This document shows positions 231-35,462 of a stretch of 37,138 nt of DNA, in pieces. This DNA is from Candidatus Hydrothermota bacterium (GTDB lineage: Bacteria; Hydrothermota; Hydrothermia; UBA1063). Position 1 is the stretch's first letter; each line of letters opens with the position of its first letter. The notes under the pieces were generated by a model that was given only the letters and a program-made list of their open reading frames with translations, did not search any database and had not been told where the DNA came from. The stretch is from the NCBI GenBank assembly GCA_003644895.1, contig QNDO01000001.1:1-37138 (forward strand), read 5' to 3'. The translations under genes and the position numbers were made by a program.

Positions 231-235
231 TTTTC

Positions 236-2925: not shown

Positions 2926-2927
2926 GG

Positions 2928-6242: not shown

Positions 6243-6718
6243 CTTTCAAACCTCCCTGATATGGCTTTTGATGCTTCTTCTGTATCGGTTGTTTGTACAT
6301 TTATCCAGTGGATATACAGGGTATCATCCTTAATATCCAGAGTGAAGGTTCCTGGGGTAAGTGTAATGGAATTGGCAACAAGGAGCTTACCAAGATCACT
6401 TTTCATATTGGTTTTGATCTTTACAATGCCGGGTTTAATAGGTAGTTTTGGGTGAATTACTCTATACGCAACATCGAGGTTTGCCTTTATCATCTCCCAG
6501 ATGAGATAAGGAAAGTAAATAATTCCGCAGAATATTTTTTTGGGAGTAAGGTTCAAAAGTCCCTTTTCAGTAAAGTAGCGGTATGTGAAGAGTGCCAGTA
6601 CAAGAGAAATTACGACTCCGGCAATGAGTTCCTCTGAATCTAATTTACCAGTGAAAATTACCCAGAGGATAAACATAATAATGGCTGTATACAGCCATCT
6701 GGAGATGTTTTTCATCAT
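6218..6718 (-). CDS. MrpE (MnhE) subunit (MbxA-equivalent), first gene of the operon
   Basis: 166 aa with two N-terminal TM segments followed by a soluble domain (ANLDVAYRVIHP, ITLTPGT), as in MnhE. A GGAGG lies directly upstream, and the ATG may be at 6718 or 6715. Confidence 0.75.
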   Translation of the reverse strand: MMKNISRWLYTAIIMFILWVIFTGKLDSEELIAGVVISLVLALFTYRYFTEKGLLNLTPKKIFCGIIYFPYLIWEMIKANLDVAYRVIHPKLPIKPGIVKIKTNMKSDLGKLLVANSITLTPGTFTLDIKDDTLYIHWINVQTTDTEEASKAISGRFERCLKRFLD

Positions 6719-8098: not shown

Positions 8099-8802
8099 TT
8101 ATAAAGCGTTTCTTTAGAAAAGAAGCTTTCGGGAATTTTTATATCAAACTCCAACTTTTTATATGTAATTCGTGTGGAGGAGTTTCTCATTCTCAGATCC
8201 TGTATAATGAAGTCGGTAATATAATATCGCTCGCCAAATCTGGAAATTGTGAAAGCTTTTATTTCTTTTATTTTTCTTCCGCTTTTTGTAAAAAGTTCTT
8301 CTTTCCAAGGCACGTATTTTGTTTTATCTACAAAAAGCTTTACACGATAATATTGTGCCTTTCCCGTGGTGTCTACGAGTTCCAAAATGTATACCCCATG
8401 TCCTTCAAGAACTGTATCCTTAATTATTTTCCCACTATAATAGCTAAAAGGGTCATCCTCCATTAGGTCTTCATAAGATAAGTCACTTCCCATTAGAGAT
8501 TGTTTCAGCATATCTCCCGAGATTCTTACCACGTCATCGATGTCTGGAAGATAAATATATAAATCCCTTTCAAGCTTGAGATATTTCACATCTCTATCTT
8601 CTGGGTTAGTGAAGACAATAAGAAAATCGTTTCCTTTACCATATCCATAAAATTCTTTGAGGAGCCTTTTCTTACCCTTTTTTATCTCCATTGTGGCTTC
8701 AAATTTGATAGATTCAATTTTCGTGTTTTCCCTTAACTTTTTGAGTATAAAATCGGGCCTCACTTGCTGTAGAAGTAATGCTAAAAATATTATCTTTATC
8801 AT
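8095..8802 (-). CDS. LolA-like 'outer membrane lipoprotein-sorting' family periplasmic protein (cassette B)
   Basis: 235 aa with a signal peptide lacking a lipobox Cys. The blocks MGSDLSYEDLMED and VDKTKYVP are shared with the paralogue at 16389-17105. A GGAGGG SD is present. Confidence 0.75.
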   Translation of the reverse strand: MIKIIFLALLLQQVRPDFILKKLRENTKIESIKFEATMEIKKGKKRLLKEFYGYGKGNDFLIVFTNPEDRDVKYLKLERDLYIYLPDIDDVVRISGDMLKQSLMGSDLSYEDLMEDDPFSYYSGKIIKDTVLEGHGVYILELVDTTGKAQYYRVKLFVDKTKYVPWKEELFTKSGRKIKEIKAFTISRFGERYYITDFIIQDLRMRNSSTRITYKKLEFDIKIPESFFSKETLYK

Positions 8803-8813
8803 AATTCCCTCCT

Positions 8814-10019
8814 TTAAACCTGTCTCAATGCTTCTTGAGGGGTAAGTTTTCTTGCATAGAGTGCAGGAAATACACTAGATAATGCTGATATTATAAGAGT
8901 GAGCAGGAAAGCAAAAAGGAACACTTTAAAATTTGCCTCTGGTCTGATTATATAAGGCATAGGGAAAGCTGTATTTTTTAGTATTGACTCTACATTTATA
9001 CCCTTTATTGAAAGACCATATGCAAAGAGAAGTCCCAAAAGGGATCCGAAGAATCCCCCTAATGCACCAAGCATTGTCCCTTCCATTCCGAATAACATAA
9101 ACACTTCGTTATCTGTCATTCCTATTGCCTTGAGAGTTCCAATTTCTCTCAGTCTTTCAAAAACTGCAACTGTCATGGTATTAATTATAGCAAAAGTTGC
9201 AAGTCCTATTATAAGGATGTAAATAAAACCGTAGAATACACCTGCTAATTTAAAATATACCCCGAATGTGCCCAAAAGCTCCATGTAAGATTTTGCATCT
9301 AAGTCCGGGGGAAGTTTCAGCTTGGTTTTTAACTCGGGAATTTGTTTATCATTTTGGAGGAATAACAAAATTTCTGATGCACCTTCCTTGGTTTTTAACA
9401 GTTTTCTTGCGTGTTTTAAAGACATTAGGATGAAGCTTCTATTTAACGTGCTCATGCCAAAGTTTGCTATGCCTGAAACTGGAAGCTTAATACCATTTAA
9501 ACCACCAAGAGTCGTGCGGGAGAGTATGATTAAAGTATCGCCAGGATTTATTTTTAAAGAATTTGCAAGTTCTTTACCCAAAATGAAACCAGATTCAAGA
9601 TTACCAGAACCTGTTATAATCCTGCTTTTAATATTTATAGTGCTTTTTTCTTTTTCTGGGTCAATGGCCATTACATAAGCAGGCTTTGTTGTGTTATCTC
9701 TTGAAATCAAGGCAGTAAATTTAATTCTTGGTGCAACAAGTTTTACCTCCTTGAATTTTAGGAGGTTATGGATTATGGGAGAGGGCTCCTCTATGAGTTC
9801 ATCTACAGGTAGAAAAACTCTTTTTCGCAGGTATTCGGTTCGCGCTATGGTTATATGTCCTGTTTCCAGATTTATAACAGCTTCTTTTGTCCCATTCAAA
9901 AAACCTTGCACATAGCCATAGAGTGCTACTACCACAAAACTTGCCACAAAAAGTGACAACGCAGTTAAAAAACTTCTTCTTTTATTCCTTAATATATTTT
10001 TAAATGCCATCTTCATCAT
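8814..10019 (-). CDS. FtsX/MacB-type ABC permease with large periplasmic domain (LolE/LolC-sized)
   Basis: About 400 aa with the N-terminal block AFKNILRNKRRS, one TM, a periplasmic domain of about 220 aa, and three C-terminal TMs with ERLREIGTLKAIGMT. The start is ambiguous among the ATGs at 10019, 10016 and 10010. Confidence 0.85.
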   Translation of the reverse strand: MMKMAFKNILRNKRRSFLTALSLFVASFVVVALYGYVQGFLNGTKEAVINLETGHITIARTEYLRKRVFLPVDELIEEPSPIIHNLLKFKEVKLVAPRIKFTALISRDNTTKPAYVMAIDPEKEKSTINIKSRIITGSGNLESGFILGKELANSLKINPGDTLIILSRTTLGGLNGIKLPVSGIANFGMSTLNRSFILMSLKHARKLLKTKEGASEILLFLQNDKQIPELKTKLKLPPDLDAKSYMELLGTFGVYFKLAGVFYGFIYILIIGLATFAIINTMTVAVFERLREIGTLKAIGMTDNEVFMLFGMEGTMLGALGGFFGSLLGLLFAYGLSIKGINVESILKNTAFPMPYIIRPEANFKVFLFAFLLTLIISALSSVFPALYARKLTPQEALRQV

Positions 10020-11209
10020 ACCCACCTCAAGCATTCTGCTGGTGTCATTTTCATTGCCCGTTTTGATGGAAAATAGCTAGCAAAGATTGTTGTTAATGGT
10101 CCAAGAAATAGTGCCACAATAATACTTTTTATGTTCCATGTATTTTTCACAATCCCCATAACTTTATACCCTACATCCATGTCTTTGAGAAGTGGAGACC
10201 AATCAATGCCATGCACCACAAAATACCAGTTTATGAGGATTCCTATTATAACCCCTGAAAGAGAGCCCGCTACACCAATTAAAACCCCCTCGCTCAAGAA
10301 CAATTTCATAACTTCTCTGTCGGTCATACCAATTGCTTTTAGGGTGCCGATTTCTCTTGTTTTTTCAAAAACAGATATAAGTAAAGTATTCGCTGTGCCG
10401 ATAATACCAATAAGTATTATAAAAAAGAGAAGCACTGCTTGAGCTGCATTCTTTGTTTTGCTTATGGCGAGAAAGTCTGCACCTTCGTCTACCCAGGAGG
10501 TGATTTTGAATTTTTTGAAAGCAGAGATTAGTCTATTTTTATAGCTCTCAGCCTTGTTAAACTCATCAGTGAGAATATTTATTTGGGTAACTTCGTCTTT
10601 AAAATTCCCCATATCCCTTAAAAGATTAATATCAATGTAGATGTGAGAGTTATTAATTTCAAAGTCTGGGGTATTTAATATACTTTTTATTTCAACTTCT
10701 CTGGATACAATGATTCCATTCTTCCCTCTCATGTTGAGAAATAAATAATCTCCTTCTTTAACATCAAAGTGTTTCTTAATGGAAGAGCCAATCCAGATGC
10801 CATCACGAAGAGGAGCATCGGCGTATTCAAAAGTCTTAAAAACTGCTTTATCTCGCTCAGGATCTATTCCAACAATAACAACAGGGTATTGATCAATTCC
10901 ATTATCAAGAAATCCAACTATCTTTAAACGTTCTGTATAGGCTTTTATAAAGGGATATTTCTCTAATTTGTTTTCTATCTCCGAAGGGGTCTCTATGTAA
11001 CCCTCCAGGGTCTCCTCGTTAAAATCTTCTGAGCGAATAACCATATGGGAAGATTGCAATGCTATAAAGTTCCTGATAGATTCTTTTTCAAATCCTCCTA
11101 GCATTCCGGTTATCACAATGTAATAAGTGATTGCCACTGTCAGTATCCCAAAGGTAAGTAAAGTTCTGCGTTTGTCTCGTAGTAGATTTTTTAAAGCAAG
11201 CTTCCACAT
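10016..11209 (-). CDS. FtsX/MacB-type ABC permease with large periplasmic domain (LolC/LolE-sized)
   Basis: 397 aa with LALKNLLRDKRRT at the N-terminus and EKTREIGTLKAIGMT in the FtsX domain. It is a paralogue of the neighbouring permease. Confidence 0.85.
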   Translation of the reverse strand: MWKLALKNLLRDKRRTLLTFGILTVAITYYIVITGMLGGFEKESIRNFIALQSSHMVIRSEDFNEETLEGYIETPSEIENKLEKYPFIKAYTERLKIVGFLDNGIDQYPVVIVGIDPERDKAVFKTFEYADAPLRDGIWIGSSIKKHFDVKEGDYLFLNMRGKNGIIVSREVEIKSILNTPDFEINNSHIYIDINLLRDMGNFKDEVTQINILTDEFNKAESYKNRLISAFKKFKITSWVDEGADFLAISKTKNAAQAVLLFFIILIGIIGTANTLLISVFEKTREIGTLKAIGMTDREVMKLFLSEGVLIGVAGSLSGVIIGILINWYFVVHGIDWSPLLKDMDVGYKVMGIVKNTWNIKSIIVALFLGPLTTIFASYFPSKRAMKMTPAECLRWV

Positions 11210-11210
11210 A

Positions 11211-11894
11211 TCATTCTCCTACTATTTTACCATCTCTTAGTTTGATAATTCTCTTTGCATGTTCTACTATCAACGGGTCATGGGTAGAGAAAACGAAGGT
11301 AACACCCTTTTCGGCATTGAGCTTCCTCATGAGTTCAACAATACTTTTTCCTGTTTCACTGTCAAGGTTTGCGGTGGGCTCATCTGCAAGAACAAATTCC
11401 GGGTCTTTAACTAAAGCCCTTGCAATTGAGACTCTCTGTTGTTCCCCACCAGAGAGCTCTAACGGTTTCATATTCCACTTGTCTGAAAGCCCAACTGCTT
11501 CCAATATGGAAAGGATTCTTTTTTCTCTCTCCTTTTTTTGAAGATTTTTATAGCGAAGTTTTAAAGCAATTTCAACGTTTTCATACACCGTAAGGACAGG
11601 AATAAGATTAAAACTCTGGAAAATAAAGCCAAAGTAATTCCTTCTTAAAAGAGCAAGTTCCTCAGGTTTTTTTGTTTGTAATTCTTCACCGTGTAATGTT
11701 ACAGATCCCCGGGTTGGTAGGTCAATACATCCCATTATATTGAGAAGGGTTGTTTTTCCCGAGCCCGAGGGGCCTACAACGGCAGTAAATTCTCCTTTAC
11801 TTATCTGGAGGTCAATGCCTCGCAAAGCTTTAACTCTATATTTTCCGGATACATAAATTTTTTCTATATCTTTAAGTTCAATTACTATCATCAT
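11211..11894 (-). CDS. ABC transporter ATP-binding protein, LolD/MacB-type
   Basis: It carries Walker A GPSGSGKTT, a Q-loop, the signature LSGGEQQR, Walker B FVLADEPT, and an H-loop STHD. The start is probably the ATGATG at 11894/11891 after GGAGG, overlapping the TetR stop. Confidence 0.9.
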   Translation of the reverse strand: MMIVIELKDIEKIYVSGKYRVKALRGIDLQISKGEFTAVVGPSGSGKTTLLNIMGCIDLPTRGSVTLHGEELQTKKPEELALLRRNYFGFIFQSFNLIPVLTVYENVEIALKLRYKNLQKKEREKRILSILEAVGLSDKWNMKPLELSGGEQQRVSIARALVKDPEFVLADEPTANLDSETGKSIVELMRKLNAEKGVTFVFSTHDPLIVEHAKRIIKLRDGKIVGE

Positions 11895-12603
11895 ACCTCC
11901 TCTCATTAAAGTATGTTTCAATGACCTCCTTGATCATTTCCGGATACCCTTTTAATCCTAAAGAACCTTTCGGTAATGCCAGGATTCTTTCCATTGAGAT
12001 TAGATAGATTTTTTTTAACTCATAGATTTTTTCAATACAGTTCTGTTTTGTGTCAGAATTAAGAATTGTCCGCGCTACATCATCACCAAAATTACCCAAA
12101 AGTCTTGCAATAAGTCTCCCTGTGTACTCGGGGTACTGAATATCAAAAATACCCTCTTTTACTCCCTGACTAATGATCTTTGAAAAAATAGAGGCACTAA
12201 TTTCCAGATTTTTCTCATTCATTTTTTGTCGAAAAATTATATTTTTATCATCGTAATAAATCTTGAGATATACGATAATTTCCTTTTTAAATTTTTCAAT
12301 TTTTACTCTGATACTTTCCTCAAGGATCTTATTCAATTTTTCAATGGCATTAAGATTACTTTCTATTATGGGAGTTAAATGGAAAACTATAAATTTACTC
12401 ATTGCATCCACGATCTCTTCGAGTATTTCCATTTTGGAATTGAAATGGTAATACAATGTACCACGAGCTATTCCAGCTTTTCTTACGATATCTTCAATTG
12501 AGGTATTTTCAAAACCGTTTTTGTAAAAGAGTTCCACGGCTACCTTAAGAATCTCATCCTTTCTCTTTCTGGCTTCTTTCAATGTTCTCTTAGTTTTCTT
12601 CAT
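11878..12603 (-). CDS. TetR/AcrR-family transcriptional regulator (cassette B)
   Basis: It has a TetR_N helix-turn-helix (ILKVAVELFYKNGFENTSIEDIVRKAGIARGTLYYHFNSK) followed by a helical ligand domain. Confidence 0.9.
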   Translation of the reverse strand: MKKTKRTLKEARKRKDEILKVAVELFYKNGFENTSIEDIVRKAGIARGTLYYHFNSKMEILEEIVDAMSKFIVFHLTPIIESNLNAIEKLNKILEESIRVKIEKFKKEIIVYLKIYYDDKNIIFRQKMNEKNLEISASIFSKIISQGVKEGIFDIQYPEYTGRLIARLLGNFGDDVARTILNSDTKQNCIEKIYELKKIYLISMERILALPKGSLGLKGYPEMIKEVIETYFNERRYDDSN

Positions 12604-12688: not shown

Positions 12689-15286
12689 TTAATGGTGTTC
12701 CCTGCTCGACTCTCGCCTCACCAACCTCAAAAGTGGGGGGAGAAGGAAAAGGGTATACAGGAATGCAAGAGAAATGCCAACAAGAATCACTATGGCAAAG
12801 GAGGGATATCCTCGATATTTCCCTAGAAGAAGAGAACCAAAGGCGGCGCCGGTTGTCAAAGTTGTGTAAAATATTGCTCTTCCTATAAGAGTATATACAC
12901 CGGGTATAGAGCCCTCTTTTATGTATCTGTGCATTACATGGACTGCATCGTCAATTCCGATTCCTATAATTAGCGGGAATGCAAGAACATTGAGGAAATT
13001 CAGGGATACACCTGTGAGTCCAAGAACCACGAGAGTGGAGAAGAAAGCAAAGGTGACCGGAACATAGGAGATAAGAGATTTTGGAATACTTCTGAAATCA
13101 ATAAGAAGCAATATCAGAATTGTTGTAAATACAAGAATTAGGGCTTTCCTGCTCTCCCTCACTCCTGTGGTCCAGAGTACCCTCATAAGTATGGCCATAC
13201 CCGTTGCAGGAACTTTCTCACTCACTCTATCGATAAAGGTGCCTTTTCCAATATCATTCCAGATATCACCCTTTGAGAATATGGTAAGAAGGAAATATTT
13301 ACCGTCCTCGGATACAAATTTCTCTTTGACAGAGGTGGGGACATCCTCAAAGGCAATATATTCTGGAGTCGAAGCCGAAATTAAAAGTGGCTTTGTGACT
13401 TCAAAGAATTCTTTTCCTATTTGTTTTAATTTTTTCTGTGGCGCGTTTTTAATAGCCATATAAAGAGAATCCAGAAGACCCTTCTTGATGATATTTTCTG
13501 AGACTTCATAAACTCTATCAAGGCCGGAGATATAGGCGACGGTTTTAAGTTCCAGAATATTATTTTTTAACCTCTTTATCTGTGAAAGGAGAAGTTTCCT
13601 ATCTGTTCCATGATATGTCATCCTGCGAGCTTTACGGTGGATTTCTTTCACATATTTCATTTTATATTTCTGTTCCTTCTGAGGTGGACAGTAAAGATGA
13701 ATGCCCTCTACAAAGCTAACACCTGTAATTTTCTTGAGGATCGTCGCTAATGAGTCAGATTCTTCATAGCTCTGAGCCAGAGTCATGAGATAATCTGTGG
13801 ACATTCCAAATCGCTTAACTAGAGTATCATTTGCTGCAACTGATGCCAGTCCTTTTGCTTCAAGTTTTATAGGATTTGCTTCTGATTCCATATGGGTAAT
13901 TCCATACGGTGCAATAATGACTATAATAATAGCCAGCATAATGGGAATGTACCATCTTCTTGCAACAAATCCAGCAATATTTCCAAAGGTGGGGATTTTC
14001 AGGTCTTTGCCCTGAAGCTTTTTGCCAAAAAGTGTTATGAGTGCAGGAAGCACAAAGATTGTGGCACTTACAGTAGTTATACATCCAAGTCCCACTACGA
14101 CCCCCAGTTCTTTTAGAGCATCGAAGGATGTGAAATAAAGAGAAAGAAAAGCTAATGCGGTGGTAAAGGCTCCTATGACAAGTCCCCTTCCTACTTTTGG
14201 TAGAGCCCCTTCTATTCCTTCCTTCTCCGTGGACGCCTGAAGTATATGTATTGAGTAATCGATTCCGAGACCTATAAGAATGGCAGCCATCATTGCCGTC
14301 ATCATGTTTAACCGGCCAAATAGAATCTGGGTCAATCCCAGATCCCAGAGAATACCAAACAGAAGTGGTATGCCAGCCAGAATGGGAGCGAGAATTATGC
14401 GGAAACCGATAATAAATAGAGCTATAACAAGAATAAAAGAGACCACCGTGGTAACATTCATATCCCTCATTCCAGTGACATATTCATCTCGCATTATAGA
14501 GTACATACCGGTATCCATAATTTTTGTATGATTATGAGCTTTTTCTATTTTTTTGATGACATTTCTGATACTATCCACTCCTGCTATGATGTGGGGAAAG
14601 GCAGCAAGGTCTGATATTCCCCATCTAGGTTGAACAGAGATTAACACCATTCTATTATCCAAGGATTTAAAATATAGAGGACCTAAAAGTAGCTCTTTTG
14701 TTCCAAGTTCAAAATAATCACGCTCACCTGTTCTAATATATTTTTGAGTTCCATAAATAAAATCTTCCAACGCAAGGAGTGATTGAGTGGCCTCCAGCTC
14801 TTGAGCGGACAGGTTTTCTTCTTTCTCAATATATTCAGACTCTAAATCATCGTTGTATTTGAGTAGGAAACTGTCCATGTCAAGGCTAGTAATCATCTTT
14901 GCAACCCTTTCTATGAGAGAGGAGTCTATGAGCATTAAAGCGTGCTTCTCGAGAAAGTCTTCTGGCTGTTTTAATGTAACAGTTTTAGTAAAACTTTTTA
15001 TTTTTTCAACAGAGTCTTTTACCTCTTCTGCTATTGCGAGGAGAGATTCTGGTATAGGATGCTCCACTACAATAAGCAGCCCGCCCTCATTTCCAAATCT
15101 CTCTATCACAGTATTGTAAAGTGCAAGGGAAGGATGTTTTTTGGGAATTATATTAAGCCATGTCATTTCCATTCGGAGGTGTGCAGCAAAGTATACCATT
15201 ATGAGTGTGAAAACCACAGAAAGTCCGAGAACTAACTTTGGCCTTTTAATAGAGATATGGGTTATAAGATCGAATAGTCTCTGCAT
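12689..15286 (-). CDS. MMPL/COG1033-type RND-superfamily exporter (cassette A)
   Basis: 865 aa in a duplicated architecture: two 6-TM bundles, each after a large periplasmic domain. Sterol-sensing/MMPL-like blocks are LGIDYSIHIL and GIGIDDAVHVMHRY. A GGAGG SD is present. Confidence 0.85.
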   Translation of the reverse strand: MQRLFDLITHISIKRPKLVLGLSVVFTLIMVYFAAHLRMEMTWLNIIPKKHPSLALYNTVIERFGNEGGLLIVVEHPIPESLLAIAEEVKDSVEKIKSFTKTVTLKQPEDFLEKHALMLIDSSLIERVAKMITSLDMDSFLLKYNDDLESEYIEKEENLSAQELEATQSLLALEDFIYGTQKYIRTGERDYFELGTKELLLGPLYFKSLDNRMVLISVQPRWGISDLAAFPHIIAGVDSIRNVIKKIEKAHNHTKIMDTGMYSIMRDEYVTGMRDMNVTTVVSFILVIALFIIGFRIILAPILAGIPLLFGILWDLGLTQILFGRLNMMTAMMAAILIGLGIDYSIHILQASTEKEGIEGALPKVGRGLVIGAFTTALAFLSLYFTSFDALKELGVVVGLGCITTVSATIFVLPALITLFGKKLQGKDLKIPTFGNIAGFVARRWYIPIMLAIIIVIIAPYGITHMESEANPIKLEAKGLASVAANDTLVKRFGMSTDYLMTLAQSYEESDSLATILKKITGVSFVEGIHLYCPPQKEQKYKMKYVKEIHRKARRMTYHGTDRKLLLSQIKRLKNNILELKTVAYISGLDRVYEVSENIIKKGLLDSLYMAIKNAPQKKLKQIGKEFFEVTKPLLISASTPEYIAFEDVPTSVKEKFVSEDGKYFLLTIFSKGDIWNDIGKGTFIDRVSEKVPATGMAILMRVLWTTGVRESRKALILVFTTILILLLIDFRSIPKSLISYVPVTFAFFSTLVVLGLTGVSLNFLNVLAFPLIIGIGIDDAVHVMHRYIKEGSIPGVYTLIGRAIFYTTLTTGAAFGSLLLGKYRGYPSFAIVILVGISLAFLYTLFLLPPLLRLVRRESSREHH

Positions 15287-15297
15287 GTCCGCCTCCT

Positions 15298-16392
15298 TTA
15301 AAATCCTACTCTTATCCTGAATATTACTCCATCGTTTATATTGGAGTATTCTGTACCATCCCTTCCTAACCCAACATAGCTTGTAATCTGAAGAGATGTA
15401 TAATCATTGAAAGAATAACTTATTCCTGGCATTACAATTGTACTTTTGTCATTTATGTTGGTGATGGAAGAGATCTTGAATGTAAATAGCTCGTGTATTC
15501 TTTCCAGATTGAAAAAAAACTCATTTTGGCCCATGGTCAGTGTATACCCCGAAAAATAATCAAGCCAATCTGCAGGATTGTAATCTCTGAAATTATCCTT
15601 ACCTTCTTCGTTTCTTAAATATTCCAAAAGACAAGAAGTAAGGCCATCGTTAAATGTATAATCAATCCCTAAAAGGCCTATTTTCTTTTTTGTTTTTAGA
15701 TTATAGGTGCCCTCACCGTGTACACCAATACCCAAGAATTCTGTGGAGAAGTCCAGGGTAAAAATTTTGTTTTTTTTCTTAAAAGGTAAAAATATAACAG
15801 GATCCATATAAGTACTAAGGTAGTCCAAATAGCCCAGAGAAAAATCCAAGAACCCCTTTACATTACCTCTCAATCTTCCTCCATATGAGGATGAATCAAT
15901 GCTATTTTCTGGAATATATAATAGATCGACGTCGAAGGAACCCGCAATATCCAAGAACATTCTTAATGCGTCTACACCGTCAAGTTCGTAGGAGGGATCC
16001 AAAATAGATTTTTTCTGAAAAACATTTGTGGGATTAAAAGCATATCCTGTTCCCCAGCCTATCTGCTGTCTCCCAAATTGTAGAGTGAGGGGAGATATTC
16101 TCACCCTCAGAAAAGCATTTCTGAAATAAAGCCTGGATTTATATGTAAAAGGTATGGAGGGTAGTGCGTACTCGGGCATGAAGTCAGCAAGATCGTACTG
16201 TGTTTTACCGTGATACGAAATATACACTAGGTCTGTTCTAAAATAGGAGGAAGAAATTCTCTGTCTCGATGTAAGATTTAGCTTACTATAGCCTACAAAT
16301 TTGTATTCGCCCTTTAAATTAAAAATTTCCCCTTGATATTCAAAAAACCCTTCCGGTTTAATTGCTAGTATGACAAAAAGGAGGATATTCAT
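15298..16392 (-). CDS. Predicted outer-membrane beta-barrel of unknown family (cassette A)
   Basis: 364 aa with a signal-like N-terminus, the block QFGRQQIGWGTGYAFNPTNVF, an aromatic/Gly/Asn-rich alternating pattern, and a C-terminal beta-signal ...VIFRIRVGF. It has an ATGA overlap with the LolA-like gene. Confidence 0.6.
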   Translation of the reverse strand: MNILLFVILAIKPEGFFEYQGEIFNLKGEYKFVGYSKLNLTSRQRISSSYFRTDLVYISYHGKTQYDLADFMPEYALPSIPFTYKSRLYFRNAFLRVRISPLTLQFGRQQIGWGTGYAFNPTNVFQKKSILDPSYELDGVDALRMFLDIAGSFDVDLLYIPENSIDSSSYGGRLRGNVKGFLDFSLGYLDYLSTYMDPVIFLPFKKKNKIFTLDFSTEFLGIGVHGEGTYNLKTKKKIGLLGIDYTFNDGLTSCLLEYLRNEEGKDNFRDYNPADWLDYFSGYTLTMGQNEFFFNLERIHELFTFKISSITNINDKSTIVMPGISYSFNDYTSLQITSYVGLGRDGTEYSNINDGVIFRIRVGF

Positions 16393-17105
16393 TCTTCAGA
16401 TACCTCCCTGAGCCTTTTTGGAGAAAAGAGATCATCCTCCACTTTGGTTTTGTAGTCAATTCTTATAGTCCGGATTTCTGTTTCGGAACCTGTTTCATTG
16501 TTTCTCATGACTACGTGCATGGGAGTTGGAATATAATCCACTATCTTTATATCTTCCTGAATAAGTGTTTTATATGGTTTATCTTCGCCTTTTCGGTAGA
16601 AATCTACTACAAGCGGAACATAGGTCTTTTTGTCAACTCTGAGCACCAGTTTCCCATAAGAAATTTTAACATTTTCTTTTGGTATCAGTGTAAGAACGTA
16701 AATATCTTTCTCCTCATTCAGATTTACAGGTTTAAATTTCTTTTTGTAGGTTCCCATCGTCATATCTTCGTATGTAAAATCAGAACCCATCATCTTTTGT
16801 TTCTTTGCGTGAGACGCAATTTTTCTTATTCTTCCTGTTTCAGGGAAGTAGGCCCATACATTGTCACCAATAATGAGAAAGCTGTTTCCTCGAACTTGAG
16901 GAGGGAATATATACACCATCAGCTGTTTGTCCATACCATTTTTAGTATAAAATTTTATTTTGAATGTCCTCTTTTTCCCGGTGGTAGTGATGATAGTTTC
17001 TTCCATAACTCCTATGGAGTGGGGAAATATAGCCACACTATCAACTTTACTTAGAAGTTCCTCAGGACTCAACGCCAGTATAATGAACGTAAATAATGTA
17101 AACAT
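16389..17105 (-). CDS. LolA-like 'outer membrane lipoprotein-sorting' family periplasmic protein (cassette A)
   Basis: 238 aa with a signal peptide lacking Cys. The blocks MMGSDFTYEDM and VDKKTYVP match the paralogue at 8095-8802. Confidence 0.75.
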   Translation of the reverse strand: MFTLFTFIILALSPEELLSKVDSVAIFPHSIGVMEETIITTTGKKRTFKIKFYTKNGMDKQLMVYIFPPQVRGNSFLIIGDNVWAYFPETGRIRKIASHAKKQKMMGSDFTYEDMTMGTYKKKFKPVNLNEEKDIYVLTLIPKENVKISYGKLVLRVDKKTYVPLVVDFYRKGEDKPYKTLIQEDIKIVDYIPTPMHVVMRNNETGSETEIRTIRIDYKTKVEDDLFSPKRLREVSEE

Positions 17106-17108
17106 TTC

Positions 17109-17708
17109 CTACCTCCTGCTGATTCCCTTCAAAACAGTATCAAGGAAATCTTCTGTGATTCTTTCTAGGTCTATTTCCTCCCTAAATAACATGGCATGAA
17201 ACAGAATGCCGTCCATGAAAGCAAGTAAACTCCTGGATAAATTTTCGACATTAACTGTTTCTTTGAATTCTTCTTTTTTTATGCCTTCTTCCAGAATTTT
17301 TCGTGTGATTCTCAGGTACTTTTTATACATATCCCTGAAATCAAATTTTAAATGGTTTCTTATGCCCTCACTCCAGAACTCTGTCATGACCATAATTGCT
17401 TCTCTGGGCATATTTTCCACTAATTCTAGATATCCTGTCACCAGTGCCTTTATTTTCATGGAGGCACTCATATTAGGTTTCACCTTTTGGAAAGCATATT
17501 CATCCAAGGCTTTGAAGAGGTGGACAATAAGAGAAGTAAATAGGTCCTCTTTACTCTCGAAATATTCGTAAATTGTCCCTTTCCCAACACCTGCATGCTC
17601 TGCAATTTCTCTCATTCGGGTCCTGTGGTAGCCTTTCCGCGAAAAAAGATACAGGGCAGCTTCAAGAATTTTAATCCGTTTATTTTTATTATTTTTGGTA
17701 TCAAACAT
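17109..17708 (-). CDS. TetR/AcrR-family transcriptional regulator (cassette A)
   Basis: It has a TetR_N HTH (ILEAALYLFSRKGYHRTRMREIAEHAGVGKGTIYEYFESK). I prefer the ATG at 17708 because the track's upstream extension to 17759 runs through the promoter and operator. Confidence 0.88.
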   Translation of the reverse strand: MFDTKNNKNKRIKILEAALYLFSRKGYHRTRMREIAEHAGVGKGTIYEYFESKEDLFTSLIVHLFKALDEYAFQKVKPNMSASMKIKALVTGYLELVENMPREAIMVMTEFWSEGIRNHLKFDFRDMYKKYLRITRKILEEGIKKEEFKETVNVENLSRSLLAFMDGILFHAMLFREEIDLERITEDFLDTVLKGISRR

Positions 17709-17711
17709 ATC

Positions 17712-17727
17712 GACCGACCAGTCGGTC
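17712..17727. promoter_or_regulatory. Candidate TetR operator GACCGAC-ca-GTCGGTC (perfect 7+7 inverted repeat)
   Basis: Read directly. It lies 3 nt downstream of the -10 element and 3 nt upstream of the TetR-A ATG. Confidence 0.65.
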
Positions 17728-17730
17728 AAA

Positions 17731-17759
17731 ATTATATAATAAGTCTTGCATAATGTCAA
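17731..17759 (-). promoter_or_regulatory. Consensus sigma-70 promoter of cassette A (TTGACA-17-TATAAT)
   Basis: On the minus strand, TTGACA is the complement of 17754-17759 and TATAAT is the complement of 17731-17736, with a 17-nt spacer counted base by base. Confidence 0.7.
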
Positions 17760-30044: not shown

Positions 30045-31713
30045 TGAATTTGAATCCATGCTACAGGAGGCATTGAAAATTCCCCGAGAGGGTGAGATAG
30101 TGAAGGGGGTGGTAGTTAAAGTAACACCCCAGGAAGTATATATTGATATAGGATCAAAATCGGAAGGTGTTGCACCAAGGTATGAATTCAAAAACCCTGA
30201 TTTAAAACCCGGTGATGAAGTTTTTGTGTATATAGATACTTTAGATGGCAGAGATGGACGAACCATTGTTTCCAAGCACAAAGCAGATTTCCTCATGGCG
30301 TGGGATAGAATTAAAGATGCCTACCAGAATAATGAGACAGTAGATGCAAAAGTCCTCAGACAGGTGAAGGGGGGGTTAATAGTAGACGTTTTCGGTGTGG
30401 ATGCATTCCTTCCGGGATCTCAACTTGATGTCAAGAAGGTCAAAAGTATTCCTGCTTTTGTGGGAAAGAATATAAAAGTGAAGGTAATAAAATTAAACAA
30501 AGCTAGGAAAAACATAGTAGTATCAAGGAAAGAAGTAATAGAGGAAGAGATAGAAAAGCAGAGAGAGAGATTGCTTGGTATAAAACCTGGAGAGATCCTG
30601 GAGGGTGTTGTCAAAAATATTACAGACTTTGGAGTATTTGTTGATCTTGGAGGAGTAGATGGTCTTATACATATCTCTGATCTCTCTTGGACCAAGATAA
30701 ATCATCCAGATCAGGTTCTCAAAGTGGGGGACAAAGTAAAGGTTAAGGTTCTGGAAGTGGACCCCCAAAATCTTAAACTTTCACTGGGATACAAGCAGCT
30801 ACAGCCTCATCCATGGGAGGCAGTTGCTAAGAAGTACCCCATAGGCTCCATTGTGAAGGGTATAGTGAAGCGTATTGTGGATTATGGAGTTTTTGTAGAA
30901 CTTGAGTCCGGAGTTGAAGGCCTGGTACATATTACTGAGATGAAATGGGGCAAACCGCCGGCTCATCCATCTGAACTGGTAAAAGAGGGAGATAAGGTTA
31001 ACGTGGTGGTTTTGAATGTGGAAGTGGAAAAACAGAGAATTTCACTGGGTATGAAACAGGCGGTTCCGGATCCCTGGTCCCTCATTGAAGAAAAATATCC
31101 TGTGGGTTCTGTGGTTAAGGGGGTTGTTAAAGACTTTGGAAATTACGGAGCTTATATTGAGATTGAAGAGGGAATCGAAGGATTTCTGCACATCGGCGAT
31201 ATTTCATGGACCAAGAGATTCAAGTCGCCTGAAGAGGCTTTAAGAAAAGGTCAAAGATTGAGACTCAAGGTTTTAAACATTGATAAAAGAGATCGCTTTC
31301 TCGAACTGGGATTGAAACAGCTCAGGCCCAGCCCATGGGACGAAATCATTAAAAGGTTGCAGCCTGGTACAGACCTTAAGGCAGAGATCGTGGAAGTAGG
31401 AGAAAGAGGAGTTATTGTGGAGGTAGATAAAGGACTTGATGGTTTCGTACCTGCTTCACAACTTCAGAAGAAAGGTTCTCCAAAGGAAAATTACAAAATT
31501 GGTGAGGAACTTAACCTTAAGGTGCTACGAGTGGAGCCCCAGCGGAAGAGGGTGTTGCTGTCTGAAAGAGAATTTTATCGGGCTGAAGAAAAGGCGGAAA
31601 TTGCCAAATTCAAATCTGAGCCTGCAAAGATAAACCTGGGCGAGATATTAAAAGCAGAGCTCGAAAAATTAGAAGAATTACAAAGCCAGACAGAGGAGGG
31701 GGAGGGGCAATAA
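30016..31713 (+). CDS. rpsA: 30S ribosomal protein S1 (six S1 domains)
   Basis: 565 aa with repeated S1 OB-fold units (G..V.G.V......G..VD.G...G..H.S). An AAAGGAGGT SD lies 5 nt upstream of the ATG at 30016, which overlaps the ispH 3' end by 29 nt. Confidence 0.93.
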   Translation: MEERKVMENNEFESMLQEALKIPREGEIVKGVVVKVTPQEVYIDIGSKSEGVAPRYEFKNPDLKPGDEVFVYIDTLDGRDGRTIVSKHKADFLMAWDRIKDAYQNNETVDAKVLRQVKGGLIVDVFGVDAFLPGSQLDVKKVKSIPAFVGKNIKVKVIKLNKARKNIVVSRKEVIEEEIEKQRERLLGIKPGEILEGVVKNITDFGVFVDLGGVDGLIHISDLSWTKINHPDQVLKVGDKVKVKVLEVDPQNLKLSLGYKQLQPHPWEAVAKKYPIGSIVKGIVKRIVDYGVFVELESGVEGLVHITEMKWGKPPAHPSELVKEGDKVNVVVLNVEVEKQRISLGMKQAVPDPWSLIEEKYPVGSVVKGVVKDFGNYGAYIEIEEGIEGFLHIGDISWTKRFKSPEEALRKGQRLRLKVLNIDKRDRFLELGLKQLRPSPWDEIIKRLQPGTDLKAEIVEVGERGVIVEVDKGLDGFVPASQLQKKGSPKENYKIGEELNLKVLRVEPQRKRVLLSEREFYRAEEKAEIAKFKSEPAKINLGEILKAELEKLEELQSQTEEGEGQ

Positions 31714-31724
31714 GCTCCCCCTCC
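31695..31724 (+). other. Perfect 10-bp G/C-rich hairpin (GGAGGGGGAG-n10-CTCCCCCTCC) spanning the rpsA stop codon
   Basis: Read directly. No U-tract follows, so it is not a canonical intrinsic terminator. It ends 1 nt before the first plausible mtaB codon. Confidence 0.6.
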
Positions 31725-32933
31725 ATATTCATAAAAACCTTTGGCTGCCGTTTAAATCAGTATTATACTGATTTACTACTCAACGCCTTTTATTTAAGCG
31801 GATATTCACAATCTTATGATCCTGAAACTGCAGACTACATTGTAATAAACAGTTGTGTTGTTACGCACAGGGCAGAGAGGGATACAAGGAAGTGGATAAA
31901 TAGAATTAAAAGAATAAATCCAGGGGCTAAGATTATAATTACTGGTTGTTTCCCTTTCTATAAAAAGATTGAGAATGAAAATATCTGGTTCCAAGGTTCT
32001 CCCGGTGAATTAATTGAATATCTAAAGCTTGAGAATCCTCAGTACCTCCGATTTCCTTTGTATCATGTGAGGGCAAATGTGAAGGTTCAAGAGGGGTGCA
32101 ATTTCAGATGTTCTTATTGTATTGTGCCGAAAACTAGAGGAAAGTCCAGATCAAGACCTCAGGGAGAAATCCTACAAGAGATAGAGTCACTGGTTAACAA
32201 TGGTGTTTCAGAAATTGTAATAACAGGGACCCAGACTGGAGAATGGGGGAGGGAATGGAAAAAAAATCTTGCGGATCTTCTTGAGGAGATAATCGCTAGA
32301 TTCCCTAGACTCAGAATCCGACTCTCTTCCATATCCCCCATTCATATAGATGAAGGGATCATTGAATTATTAGAGAAGGGGAAAATTTTGCCCCATTTAC
32401 ATCTTCCCATTCAGTCAGGGTCCCCCCGGATTTTAAGAATAATGCGGAGGCCATACACCCTTGACAAGTATCTGGGGCTTGTGGAGACACTCTTCCAGAA
32501 AGTTCCTGATATTGCCGTGGGTACAGACGTTATCGTCGGTTTTCCGGGGGAAAGTGATGAAGATTTCCAGACCGCCATGGAGACTCTGAAAAAAATACCT
32601 TATGCATACATGCATGTATTTGAGTTCTCACGAAGACCTGGAACCGAGGCCTATCAGATGGAGCCCGTTCCAACACACATTGTAAGGATGAGGAAAGATA
32701 TATTGCTAGAGATTGCCAGAGAAAAGAGAAGAAGATATATTGAAAAATTTCTCAGAAGACAAATAGACGGAGTCGTAGAAAAGAGGTCAGACGGATGGTA
32801 TCATGTAACAACAGGGAATTATCTCAAACTCATTGTGACAGATAAATATAAGCTGAATTGTGGTGGAGTTTATCAGTTTTTACTTAAAAAAATGTATCCG
32901 GATTTCAAAATTGAGGCTATTCCTTCTCACTGA
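31725..32933 (+). CDS. mtaB: MtaB/MiaB-family radical-SAM methylthiotransferase; 5' boundary unresolved (no canonical start codon)
   Basis: One open frame runs from 31620 to 32933. It encodes the N-terminal MTTase domain with its three Cys (FGCRLNQY, INSCVV, ITGCFP), a radical SAM CNFRCSYC motif, and a TRAM-like C-terminus. The first ATG/GTG/TTG in frame is only at 32058. The start given here is the ATA at 31725 and is provisional. Confidence 0.65.
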   Translation: MFIKTFGCRLNQYYTDLLLNAFYLSGYSQSYDPETADYIVINSCVVTHRAERDTRKWINRIKRINPGAKIIITGCFPFYKKIENENIWFQGSPGELIEYLKLENPQYLRFPLYHVRANVKVQEGCNFRCSYCIVPKTRGKSRSRPQGEILQEIESLVNNGVSEIVITGTQTGEWGREWKKNLADLLEEIIARFPRLRIRLSSISPIHIDEGIIELLEKGKILPHLHLPIQSGSPRILRIMRRPYTLDKYLGLVETLFQKVPDIAVGTDVIVGFPGESDEDFQTAMETLKKIPYAYMHVFEFSRRPGTEAYQMEPVPTHIVRMRKDILLEIAREKRRRYIEKFLRRQIDGVVEKRSDGWYHVTTGNYLKLIVTDKYKLNCGGVYQFLLKKMYPDFKIEAIPSH

Positions 32934-34302
32934 AATGGACCGTTTCGTATATGTAAAATATGCAGCTCTCCTTCCATCCATCCTTAGGTAAACCAGCCTT
33001 TAAAGAAAGATACTGAAGAGTGACTGTTTTATTCCAGTTCTGCTCAAGGGGCACTTCGGGTAAAAAAGTGGCCTCATGAAGGCCCTTAATCATTATGATG
33101 CCATGTTTACCAGGTATATAATTTTTTATATCATCTATTTTGCGAGGAGGATATAGATATACAGAGATTTCTATGGAAATGGAATTTAACTCCTCGGGTC
33201 TGAGGGGAGAGAAACGAGGGTCCTGAAAGGCAGCTGCTCGCGCCATTTTCTGTACAGTGATATAAAGAGGGTCGCTGCTCTTATGTATACCAATACAACC
33301 TCTGAGTTGAGAGTTTTTTCTCAGAGTCACAAATACTCCTCGTTTTTCAAGCAGCCTGGGATCTGAAGGTTTTTCTCTCACAATATCCTTCCCTTCAAAT
33401 GCTCTTTTTATGGATTCTCTCGCAAGATTTAAAAGGAATTTTTTTTCCCTTTCGTTAAAGAATTCCCTATAAAATACGATAGAGGCATACCCCACAACTT
33501 CTCTTCTACCCCCTGCTGTATCTCCTGAATTGAGATAGAGGAGTTTTTTGGCTTTTAGATTACCTCTCAATTCTCTTATCTTCAAGGCAATAAGAGTAGG
33601 GAAGAAACCGCATAGTTCAATTTTTTTCTCTTTAAAACGATTCAAAAACACCTGCGGATCTCCCTCTATGATGGTTTTAATCGTAAAAGAATCTATCTTT
33701 TTGGCGATTTCATACGATTTATAATGAGAAAGATCGGTACTCACCAGAATTAAATAATTTTTGCCTTTGAGTAATTCTACGAGAGAGTGAGCAAACTCGT
33801 TGGCCTCTGCCATATTGATACTCCCGACAAGAAAAGGCAAAATCCTGAAGTCCTTTAGCACATATTGCAGGAAAGGAAGCTGTACTTCAATTGAGTGTTC
33901 CGGGAGGTGTGCCTCCTTTATGAAATTTACAAACTTCAATTTGAGTATCTTCTCTCCTAAATTTTTTTCAACTTCTACATTACCAAGGGGAGTTCTATAG
34001 AAATCAAAGAGTCCCACAGAGATTCCCCTTAAAGGATAATAGTGAGCCGGAGCCAGTATAACTACAAGATCATAATCGTCTCCCTGTATTTCTCTGTAGC
34101 TTTGGGCAGCTACTTTTCCCGAATATATGTAACCAGCATGAGGTGAGAATAATATCTCCGGTTTACCTCCTAGTGGGATATACTGTGTTGATTCAATAAG
34201 CTGTGAAACAACTTTAAAGAGTTCTTCTCTTTGCTCCGGATAAAATCTCCCTGCTTGGGCGGGTTCTCTCAAAAGAAAACTTATTATCATCAACCAGAAC
34301 AT
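32917..34302 (-). CDS. Fused AmmeMemoRadiSam system protein B (Memo-like) and protein A (AMMECR1 domain)
   Basis: The N-terminal half has AGRFYP, SPHAGYIYSG, EHSIEVQLPFLQ and STDLSHY (Memo family). The C-terminal half has GVFVTL, QLRGCIG, DPRF.PL and ATFLPEV (AMMECR1). I prefer the ATG at 34302 (GGAGG 7 nt upstream) over the track start at 34362. Confidence 0.85.
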   Translation of the reverse strand: MFWLMIISFLLREPAQAGRFYPEQREELFKVVSQLIESTQYIPLGGKPEILFSPHAGYIYSGKVAAQSYREIQGDDYDLVVILAPAHYYPLRGISVGLFDFYRTPLGNVEVEKNLGEKILKLKFVNFIKEAHLPEHSIEVQLPFLQYVLKDFRILPFLVGSINMAEANEFAHSLVELLKGKNYLILVSTDLSHYKSYEIAKKIDSFTIKTIIEGDPQVFLNRFKEKKIELCGFFPTLIALKIRELRGNLKAKKLLYLNSGDTAGGRREVVGYASIVFYREFFNEREKKFLLNLARESIKRAFEGKDIVREKPSDPRLLEKRGVFVTLRKNSQLRGCIGIHKSSDPLYITVQKMARAAAFQDPRFSPLRPEELNSISIEISVYLYPPRKIDDIKNYIPGKHGIIMIKGLHEATFLPEVPLEQNWNKTVTLQYLSLKAGLPKDGWKESCIFYIYETVHFSEKE

Positions 34303-34312
34303 GATAAACCTC

Positions 34313-35371
34313 CTATTCAAAAACTCCGGGAATCTTTTCACCGCAATAGGGACAATGTCCATTTTTTATCATATTTTTAATTGTAAAAAATCCCTTTCTT
34401 TCTATTAAAAGGTGCCCACATCTGGGGCAATATGTATTATTTTGCCTGGCATCAGGAACATTTCCTATATAAACATATTTAAGTCCATGTTTTTTTGCTA
34501 TATTGTATGCCTTCCTGAGTGTTGCCACTGGGGTGGGTGGAAGGCGCGTTAATTTAAAACGGGGGAAAAATCTTAAGAAATGTACTGGAATATCTTTTCC
34601 GAGGCTATCACTGACAAATCTAACAAAATTAGTTAATTCTTCATCGCTATCGTTGTAGCCGGGTATGACCAGATAGGTTATTTCAAACCATACCTCACTG
34701 TCCCTTGCTATCTTCAGGTTTTGCTTGATAGCTTTGAAATCTGCATAGCCTATTTTCCTGTATACCTCGTCGGAAAAGCCTTTTAAGTCTATCACAACTG
34801 CATCCAAATATTTGAGTAGTTCCTTGAATGGTTCAGGGTTAATGTAGCCACAAGTTACCATCAGATTTTTTATGTTATATTTATGGGCCAATCTAGCGCA
34901 ATCTATCATGTATTCATAAAAGATTGTGGGTTCAGAGTAAGTGTAGGCGATGGCAGCGCAGCCATTTATTCTTGCAATATCCACAATCCTTTCAGGTGTC
35001 ATGTATTCTGTTCGAATCTCATCCGGAGCATACTGGGAAATAGTCCAGTTCTGGCAAAAAGTACACCTGAGATTGCAGCCTGGTGTGGCTATGGAGAGTG
35101 CAACATTACCGGGTAAAAAGTGGTAAAATGGTTTCTTTTCGATGGGATCTATGTGGATTGCTGCGATTTTTCCGTAACTTAAACTGTAGAGTTTTCCATT
35201 CTCATTCTTTCTGGATCTGCAATAGCCTCTTTTACCTTCAGGTATTATACATTGACGGGGACACAGAAGACATTGAACTTTTTTGTTTTTCAATTTTTTA
35301 TAAAAAAGTGCTTCTTTAGGTACAGGGGGGGCAAAGAATACAATTAAAAGTAAGAGATTCAGGAGTTTCAT
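34313..35371 (-). CDS. amrS: AmmeMemoRadiSam system radical SAM enzyme
   Basis: It has an N-terminal Cys cluster (CLLCPRQC...GYC), the radical SAM motif CNLRCTFCQNW, and a C-terminal zinc ribbon (CPRCG...CPYCG). It also carries an 18-residue hydrophobic N-terminal extension. Confidence 0.85.
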   Translation of the reverse strand: MKLLNLLLLIVFFAPPVPKEALFYKKLKNKKVQCLLCPRQCIIPEGKRGYCRSRKNENGKLYSLSYGKIAAIHIDPIEKKPFYHFLPGNVALSIATPGCNLRCTFCQNWTISQYAPDEIRTEYMTPERIVDIARINGCAAIAYTYSEPTIFYEYMIDCARLAHKYNIKNLMVTCGYINPEPFKELLKYLDAVVIDLKGFSDEVYRKIGYADFKAIKQNLKIARDSEVWFEITYLVIPGYNDSDEELTNFVRFVSDSLGKDIPVHFLRFFPRFKLTRLPPTPVATLRKAYNIAKKHGLKYVYIGNVPDARQNNTYCPRCGHLLIERKGFFTIKNMIKNGHCPYCGEKIPGVFE

Positions 35372-35462
35372 ACTTTATAAATATATTGGGCAGAGTGATT
35401 TTTTTCAACAAGAAGAACTTTGACAGAACGTGAAAACCGTTTTAAATTGTTAAAGGGGAATA

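Follow-up and report, generated by a model that had tools for sequence, protein, structure and literature searches.

Hydrophobic N-termini of a Hydrothermota AmmeMemoRadiSam cassette and their possible role in targeting to the cell envelope

Why should a radical S-adenosylmethionine (SAM) enzyme and its protein partner both begin with a short hydrophobic segment? The question is raised by a 37,138-nt stretch of DNA from a Candidatus Hydrothermota bacterium (contig QNDO01000001.1 of assembly GCA_003644895.1), hereafter the window, in which two adjacent genes encode the AmmeMemoRadiSam system: a radical SAM enzyme and a single polypeptide that joins protein B (Memo-like) to protein A (AMMECR1). 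Conservation of Memo and AMMECR1 extends from archaea to humans, in whom both are associated with disease, and to our knowledge there is no agreement on the biochemical function of either; the best access to both is offered by the trio found in prokaryotes. Burroughs and colleagues reportedly proposed, in 2019, that Memo systems modify nucleotide bases or isoprenoids. A preliminary description of this DNA took the two segments for membrane anchors, on the ground that an enzyme dependent on SAM and Fe-S clusters must stay in the cytoplasm. Comparison of N-termini across the family suggests a different answer, to which we give a slight preference: the cassette would belong to a large family branch targeted to the cell envelope, its N-termini being envelope-targeting signals and not anchors on the cytoplasmic face.

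The two genes are co-oriented, as first described, and lie on the minus strand, with the radical SAM gene at 34313..35371 (352 aa) and the fusion gene 3' of it at 32917..34302 (461 aa), across a coupled-type junction of 10 nt (34303-34312). The initial assignment of the trio was borne out by profile hidden Markov models, all three TIGRFAM cut-offs being exceeded. The radical SAM enzyme matches TIGR04337 with 378.5 bits (cut-off 220; residues 23-352 on profile positions 3-334) and Radical_SAM (PF04055) with 96.8 bits (residues 94-249). The fusion protein matches TIGR04336 with 259.3 bits (cut-off 26) and Memo (PF01875) with 215 bits over residues 12-277 (33472..34269), and TIGR04335 with 162.5 bits (cut-off 99) and AMMECR1 (PF01871) with 165 bits over residues 289-457 (32932..33438).

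The translations contain every motif quoted at the outset (CNLRCTFCQNW, the Cys cluster and the zinc ribbon in the first protein; AGRFYP, SPHAGYIYSG, EHSIEVQLPF, DLSHY, LRGCIG and DPRF in the second), and most of them sit on invariant alignment columns. In the radical SAM enzyme, whose column conservation was judged on a 32-sequence alignment, invariant columns hold both the N-terminal cluster C34-x2-C37-x3-C41...C51 (35219..35272), a putative auxiliary metal or Fe-S site, and the radical SAM CX3CX2C motif (C99, C103 and C106 in CNLRCTFCQNW; 35054..35077). In the C-terminal zinc-ribbon-like CPRC...CPYC (C315, C318, C340 and C343; 34343..34429) C315 is invariant and C340 and C343 nearly so; matches of this region to zinc-ribbon Pfam models are weak. 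The invariant residues of the Memo-like half are H55, H87, E135, H136, D190, H193 and C231, and those of the AMMECR1 half include LRGCIG (C336) and DPRF (D361, R363, F364). With the radical SAM enzyme, protein B and protein A all present and co-encoded, the window holds a two-gene AmmeMemoRadiSam cassette of standard type, in which a PflA-like radical SAM enzyme is paired with a single-chain Memo-AMMECR1 protein, and the locus is an ordinary representative of a family that is known but uncharacterised. PheT, at 47-51% identity to that of named members of Candidatus Hydrothermia/WOR-3, marks the organism as a relative of these bacteria. The arrangement of the cassette recurs at five further loci (L081, L083, L084, L087 and L089).

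The hydrophobic residues would call for no explanation if they were an annotation artefact, with the true starts lying downstream and the residues left untranslated, which we regard as very improbable. The radical SAM segment, MKLLNLLLLIVFFAPPVP, occupies codons 1-18 (35318..35371) and abuts the core KEALFY. Its ATG is the sole ATG, GTG or TTG upstream of KEALFY, as the preliminary description had stated, and a stop codon stands one codon further up. The next candidate, a downstream TTG (L27), was rejected because a start there would delete the conserved KEALFYKK and with it profile positions 1-8, which signal-less relatives, starting M-KEA..., retain. The artefact draws some support from this gene, in which no Shine-Dalgarno-like sequence was seen ahead of the ATG. 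The fusion gene offers it none: its segment, MFWLMIISFLL (codons 1-11; 34270..34302), which precedes REPAQAGRFYP, has its ATG 6 nt behind a perfect AGGAGG Shine-Dalgarno sequence (34309..34314) that overlaps the TAG stop of the radical SAM gene (GAA TAG GAG GTT TAT C ATG). Independent public gene calls use identical starts for these proteins (P0001, P0121, P0122).

Both starts can also be read against L081, a syntenic relative that carries a cation diffusion facilitator (CDF) transporter gene, the radical SAM and fusion genes, an MtaB-like gene and an S1 gene in the same order as the window. The radical SAM enzymes of the two loci are identical at 333 of 352 residues and the fusion proteins are 86% identical; the 91-nt divergent intergenic region between the radical SAM and CDF transporter genes (35372..35462), in which we presume promoters to lie, is conserved. 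The window contains a longer open reading frame for the fusion protein, of 481 aa with an ATG at 34362, which was rejected: in L081 this frame is broken by a 1-nt indel in the spacer, which brings in a stop 5 codons ahead of the ATG; the Shine-Dalgarno sequence and the ATG persist, and MFWLM is therefore the real start. The Tat-like NRRFIM that is in frame in the longer version was discarded as well, its RR codons being the AGGAGG itself, as was a TTG 6 codons upstream of MFWLM, which is out of frame in L081 and poorly spaced from a Shine-Dalgarno sequence.

Across the same pair of loci, 5 of the 18 N-terminal positions of the radical SAM enzyme differ (L-to-F, I-to-L, V-to-L, F-to-L and V-to-T), the V-to-T change lying in the Pro-rich tail and the other swaps being hydrophobic for hydrophobic, and 3 of 11 differ in the fusion protein (I-to-L, I-to-L and S-to-C, giving MFWLMLLCFLL in L081). 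The N-terminal segments evolve fast yet stay hydrophobic. AlphaFold2 predicts a helix at residues 2-12 of the radical SAM enzyme (predicted local distance difference test score, pLDDT, 64) and coil at the N-terminus of the fusion protein (pLDDT 66), each detached from the fold. The extensions, of which the preliminary description took that of the radical SAM enzyme to be real if the gene is expressed, are thus fixed by their start codons and conserved in L081, and about 95% of the closest radical SAM homologues share them.

How far do such N-termini extend through the family? Among 120 radical SAM sequences (the window protein and its 119 best matches, at 51-60% identity), a hydrophobic extension precedes the KEAxYY core in 113, and those without one resemble truncated gene calls. 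The 25 nearest neighbours by core identity are all extended except the short P0022, apparently a truncated gene call. The corresponding count for the fusion protein is 101 of 120; a lipobox of the PROSITE type is present in at least 15 of the 101, and one of the PLGC type in many more. Hydrophobic N-termini are a trait of the clade.

Three N-terminal classes can be distinguished among bona fide TIGR04337 members. The signal-less class, with its M-KEAMFYEKL... start, is found in archaea, Nitrospirota, Thermodesulfovibrionales and Desulfuromonadales, among others. The twin-arginine translocation (Tat) class, recognised by RR followed by an uncharged stretch, accounts for 49 of 230 sampled sequences; when these are anchored on RR, S or T stands at -1 in 32 of the 49, F at +3 in 38, L at +4 in 39 and K at +5 in 18, residues that make up the canonical motif S/T-R-R-x-F-L-K and go beyond what the search pattern demanded. 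All five Tat-class representatives tested are full TIGR04337 members (298-369 bits), within a range of 298-416 bits for signal-bearing bona fide members. The Sec-like class, strongly hydrophobic and without RR, is that of the window protein and occurs in Omnitrophota, Elusimicrobiota, Calescamantes and other lineages. The flank N-terminal to the hydrophobic stretch is more positive than the C-terminal one in 72% of Sec-like radical SAM enzymes and in 71% of the Tat class, the orientation of an export signal. Where the classes of radical SAM/fusion pairs were read by eye, a Sec or lipoprotein signal was seen on the fusion partner in nearly all paired loci, whichever the class of the radical SAM enzyme.

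Some N-termini depart from these patterns. In L038, L041, L046 and P0261 a CXXCH motif, the signature of c-type haem attachment, lies in the extension between the signal and the radical SAM core, and the usual KEAxYY N-terminus is replaced. In L030 and L047 the N-terminal anchor and the conserved (R/P)-A-x-(F/Y)-Y start are out of frame with the remaining gene; these genes are frameshifted, misassembled or pseudogenes.

Are the window's own segments of the size of signals or of anchors? The window supplies a calibration. Two LolA-like proteins (PF17131; 8095-8802 and 16389-17105, minus strand), whose family we take to be periplasmic, begin with MIKIIFLALLLQQV and MFTLFTFIILALSPEE, with hydrophobic runs of 8 and 14 aa, and two minus-strand neighbours of 302 and 364 aa without Pfam or NCBIfam match (7190-8098 and 15298-16392) begin with MIIILLFTAF (run of 10 aa) and MNILLFVILAIKPE (9 aa). 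Each of the four starts is fixed by the upstream gene, which it overlaps by 4 nt or follows after 3-11 nt, and the N-terminal segments contain at most one Lys. Signals of exported-type proteins in this organism are accordingly unusually short, with 8-14 hydrophobic residues. True transmembrane segments in the window are longer, at 22 aa for the first segment of RNase Y and 17-23 aa for Mrp/Nuo subunits.

The hydrophobic run of the radical SAM enzyme measures 13-16 aa (with a core, LLNLLLLIVFFA, of 12 aa and an uncharged run of 16) and that of the fusion protein 10-11 aa (FWLMIISFLL or MFWLMIISFLL). Since these runs match the 8-14 aa signals and not the 17-23 aa anchors, both proteins fall into the signal-length class; neither attains the length of about 17-23 aa that anchors have in this organism, and both have the hydrophobic region of about 7-15 residues expected of a Sec signal. 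In the n-region, which in a Sec signal is positively charged, the radical SAM enzyme has one Lys (K2) and the fusion protein none; the LolA-like proteins have none or one. The fusion N-terminus is of the same style as these proteins (e.g. MFTLFTFIILALS), and the cytoplasmic housekeeping proteins of the window have no N-terminal hydrophobic run of such kind. Other signal types are absent from the window pair: the radical SAM enzyme has no S/T-R-R-x-F-L-K motif, the NRRFIM of the fusion protein exists only in the non-conserved 481-aa frame, and neither N-terminus contains a Cys, and hence a lipobox L-[AS]-[GA]-C, of the kind present in many relatives of the fusion protein. The preliminary reading of the segments as membrane anchors loses ground on length, although the charge distribution of the radical SAM enzyme, discussed below, still permits an anchor.

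A second line of evidence for the envelope comes from membrane redox modules. Electrons are supplied across the membrane by CcdA/DsbD when cytochrome c matures, by NosR/NapH and by FMN_bind domains that ApbE has flavinylated, and the domains of these modules (DsbD_2, FMN_bind, Fer4_5) are fused or adjacent to Sec-like members of the family; unlike the known clients of these modules (cytochromes, thiol oxidoreductases, N2O reductase), the client here is a radical SAM enzyme. In P0255 and P0256 a transmembrane anchor and FMN_bind with an SGAT flavinylation motif precede the radical SAM domain, with no transmembrane helix directly before that domain. FMN_bind and Fer4_5 (NosR/NapH-like) are combined in P0274 and P0241, which by a crude scan have 6 and 5 transmembrane helices, respectively, before the radical SAM domain; P0257 carries DsbD_2, FMN_bind and Fer4_5, with 6 predicted transmembrane helices between FMN_bind and the radical SAM domain. 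DsbD_2 is fused N-terminally to the radical SAM domain in P0244 and P0254, and beta-propeller or CBM11 domains are found in this position in P0247 and P0248.

Gene neighbourhoods tell the same story. One genome per GTDB species was scanned with the radical SAM alignment, yielding 80 loci from more than 10 phyla. A CcdA/DsbD_2-type gene lies directly beside the radical SAM gene or the radical SAM/fusion pair in L001-L006, L008-L011, L018, L083, L084 and L089, and this adjacency was seen at 13 of 22 Sec-like loci vs none of 63 loci with Tat, signal-less or other radical SAM enzymes (Fisher p = 6.7e-10). A reductant conduit tied to the non-Tat class is what we would expect if a Cys-rich apoprotein were exported unfolded. 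Immediately upstream of three Sec-like radical SAM genes stands a gene for a DsbD_2+FMN_bind+Fer4_5 protein (L010, 3817-5742; L011, 4066-5739; L018, 1735-3432), the combination that is fused to the enzyme in P0257; we did not recognise this combined module as a described type.

The premise that an enzyme with SAM and Fe-S clusters must stay cytoplasmic, from which the anchors had been deduced, is hard to maintain for a family whose members bear Tat signals and extracytoplasmic-type modules and whose Memo-AMMECR1 partners bear Sec or lipoprotein signals. The earlier hint of an envelope-linked role is supported by these same signals and modules.

Several observations weigh against envelope targeting. 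Our signal calls are based on our own hydropathy and regular-expression rules, and the Tat-signal models of Pfam and NCBIfam gave only insignificant UCR_Fe-S_N matches (E 0.12-0.23). In the window, no acceptable signal-peptidase (-3,-1) site was found: the FFA|PPVP of the radical SAM enzyme places F at -3 and Pro at +1, and the sole AxA of the fusion protein (AQA|G) lies within the conserved Memo N-terminus. The fusion segment lacks a positively charged n-region. An adjacent CcdA-like (DsbD_2) gene was found neither in the window nor in L081, and no DsbD_2, Tat or ApbE gene is among the window's open reading frames of at least 110 aa. The charges around the radical SAM segment, +1 in the N-flank and +5 in the 15-residue C-flank, favour an N-out/C-in topology with a cytoplasmic domain by the positive-inside rule, and the transmembrane count of P0244 and P0254 is ambiguous, six helices placing the radical SAM domain outside and a K-rich linker arguing for the inside. 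Four loci (L025, L036, L044 and L079) pair a radical SAM enzyme without a signal with a fusion protein that has one, so that co-localisation of the two proteins is not universal. Finally, we know of no route by which Fe-S clusters are inserted into a Sec-exported protein, and of no source of SAM outside the cytoplasm.

These points raise the alternative of a tether at the cytoplasmic face, in which the radical SAM enzyme, N-out/C-in, would either modify the fusion precursor before or during its Sec export or act on a membrane-soluble substrate that the fusion protein processes outside. Anaerobic sulfatase-maturing enzymes (AtsB/anSME) act on Sec-exported sulfatases and are, in being tied to an exported partner, akin to the loci that pair a signal-less radical SAM enzyme with a signal-bearing fusion protein; they differ in having a SPASM domain and no export signals, whereas AmmeMemoRadiSam enzymes often carry Tat or Sec-like ones. 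Such a tether would account for the charge bias of the window enzyme, for its Pro-rich end without a peptidase site and for the four mixed loci, it would sidestep the supply of Fe-S clusters and SAM, and it finds a parallel in the triple fusion P0252, where a full-length N-terminal helix is followed by MKKNEK. We nevertheless judge it unlikely. A hydrophobic core of 12-16 aa is shorter than every true transmembrane segment of the window, and the early mature region of the periplasmic LolA-like 1 is positive too. With respect to charge the window enzyme is an outlier in the Sec-like class, 72% of which has the opposite bias. Nor does the tether explain why relatives bear Tat signals, why FMN_bind is fused to the radical SAM domain with no transmembrane helix between them, or why CcdA-like genes are associated exclusively with the Sec-like class.

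It might also be that the window's N-termini are vestigial, inherited from exported ancestors, with both signals shortened and the CcdA-like partner lost, so that the proteins are now effectively cytoplasmic or loosely membrane-associated. The extensions, at 18 aa (radical SAM enzyme) and 11 aa (fusion protein), are indeed short vs a median of about 31 for the radical SAM class and visibly longer signals in other fusion proteins; the missing DsbD_2 neighbour in the window and L081 and the missing n-region of the fusion segment would fit decay, and signal-less forms of both proteins occur elsewhere. Against this, the segments have kept their hydrophobicity although 5 of 18 and 3 of 11 positions differ in L081, which argues for selection on them, and short signals are the norm for the exported proteins of this organism. 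We consider such decay improbable, more so than the tether.

We thus return to envelope targeting as the reading that we favour, if narrowly. Both short N-termini would be Sec-type targeting signals of the unusually short kind used by this organism, occupying the position at which relatives have Tat, Sec or lipoprotein signals, and both proteins would most likely reside on the outer face of the cytoplasmic membrane or further out. Because the radical SAM segment lacks a peptidase site and ends in PPVP, it would more likely be an uncleaved tether, the signal with its Pro-rich end probably staying in place. The CcdA/DsbD-like, FMN_bind and NosR-like membrane modules of relatives could deliver the electrons that SAM cleavage, or the upkeep of reduced Cys, requires. 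A Tat-exported enzyme could, speculatively, carry its clusters and perhaps one SAM outward, enough for a single activating turnover.

A bolder proposal, which we put forward tentatively and with more doubt than belief, is that the whole branch, probably including this locus, performs radical SAM chemistry outside the cytoplasm. In many phyla the enzyme would be exported by Tat; Omnitrophota-, Elusimicrobiota- and Calescamantes-like lineages would use a Sec-like route instead, with CcdA/FMN/NosR-type modules dedicated to supplying reductant. Outside, the enzyme would meet a Memo-AMMECR1 partner exported by Sec or as a lipoprotein.

What might the enzyme do to its partner? The AlphaFold2 model of the radical SAM enzyme (pLDDT 93.2) has the pyruvate formate-lyase (PFL)-activating enzyme 3CB8 as its closest solved fold (E 8e-15, TM-score 0.77-0.79), and PflA is also its best solved-structure relative by sequence (E 7e-12). 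The likeness is at the level of fold: against the PflA family model TIGR02493 the enzyme scores 68.3 bits, well below the cut-off of 231.75. It shares with PflA (3CB8/3C8F), which acts on a partner protein, the partial TIM-barrel radical SAM fold, and has in addition the N-terminal Cys4 module, the C-terminal zinc ribbon and the hydrophobic N-terminus; unlike PflA and other glycyl-radical activases, it has no known glycyl-radical partner. Because PflA is closest in both sequence and fold, and because radical SAM and Memo-AMMECR1 domains are fused in every order, the most economical model, held with moderate confidence by analogy, is that of an activase or maturase acting on Memo-AMMECR1. The enzyme would work one-to-one on or with the fusion protein in the manner of PFL-activating enzyme, and the Memo-AMMECR1 unit would then be the working catalyst on an envelope-located substrate.

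The fusion of B and A had been presented as a notable, Rosetta-stone indication that the two act as one unit. The indication stands; the claim to notice does not, the arrangement being common. All 120 of the best homologues of the fusion protein contain both Pfam domains, JGI names many of them 'AmmeMemoRadiSam system protein B/protein A', and across the 80 species-level loci every Memo and AMMECR1 pair within 6 kb of a radical SAM gene is a single open reading frame. The fusion, already known and long implicit in databases, adds nothing new. Among the best 150 representatives of 50%-identity clusters, 22 radical SAM proteins are themselves fused to A, B or both, the triple fusions being ordered rSAM-AMMECR1-Memo (14), Memo-AMMECR1-rSAM (2) and rSAM-Memo-AMMECR1 (1), where rSAM is the radical SAM domain. 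The AlphaFold2 model of the window fusion protein (pLDDT 95.8, predicted TM-score 0.91) is consistent with folding as a single unit.

The window pair shares with the canonical system all signature models, the adjacency and common orientation of the genes, the Cys motifs and the invariant Memo and AMMECR1 residues, and differs in having B and A on one polypeptide, as is common in bacteria, and hydrophobic N-termini on both proteins. Its Memo half aligns to residues 4-273 of human MEMO1 (PDB 3BCZ, 7KQ8; E 4e-22) and its AMMECR1 half to the archaeal AMMECR1 homologue PH0010 (PDB 1VAJ; E 8e-25). MEMO1 and PH0010 are separate cytosolic proteins, unlike the window's fused form with its hydrophobic N-terminus and radical SAM partner.

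If the bolder proposal were true, no radical SAM system would have been known to work outside the cytoplasm before this one, and it would point to an envelope or redox role of Memo and AMMECR1. What is added to the family is a large, multi-phylum branch with Tat, Sec or lipoprotein signals, apparently wired to membrane electron-transfer modules, and with it a testable localisation, the cell envelope of anaerobes, and a set of candidate partners (CcdA-like, FMN_bind and NosR-like proteins). Such a branch calls into question the usual view of radical SAM enzymes as confined to the cytoplasm and raises the question of where SAM, Fe-S clusters and low-potential electrons would come from outside the cell. 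The gain from the window itself is modest: one more member, with signals less clear-cut than any others in the clade. In the literature we found no functional study of the AmmeMemoRadiSam system and no exported radical SAM enzyme; Burroughs et al. 2019 may mention signal peptides. The envelope signature of this branch (signals of the Tat, Sec and lipoprotein kinds, modules of CcdA/FMN/NosR type and an occasional CXXCH) has apparently not been discussed and would surprise specialists in radical SAM enzymes.

Further observations concern individual relatives and the surroundings of the cassette. Seven radical SAM proteins of 700-820 aa in total (P0280, P0293, P0313, P0362, P0367, P0385 and P0389) have a radical SAM domain that is interrupted by some 450 inserted aa, which may be an intein. 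Convergent with the cassette, an MtaB-like methylthiotransferase gene (31620-32933, plus strand) overlaps the 3' end of the fusion gene by 17 nt. Its frame is open from 31620, with the UPF0004 domain (SIFIKTFGCRLNQ) starting right after the S1 stop at 31713, and contains no ATG, GTG or TTG before 32058; a non-canonical codon may serve as start, a candidate being the ATA at about 31711 that follows GGAGGGGGAGGGG, and the L081 gene call for this protein is also short at the N-terminus. The LolA-like proteins and their neighbours belong to two minus-strand envelope modules: 7190-12603 comprises a TetR gene, a LolD-like ATP-binding cassette (ABC) gene, two LolC/E-like permeases, a LolA_like gene and the 302-aa protein, and 12689-17759 a TetR gene, a LolA_like gene, the 364-aa protein and an HpnN/MMPL-like resistance-nodulation-division (RND) transporter. 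The window begins inside an Mrp/Mbx-type membrane complex cluster (1-6718, minus strand) with NuoH-like, NuoM/L-like, MrpD-like, MnhC, MnhB and MnhE genes.

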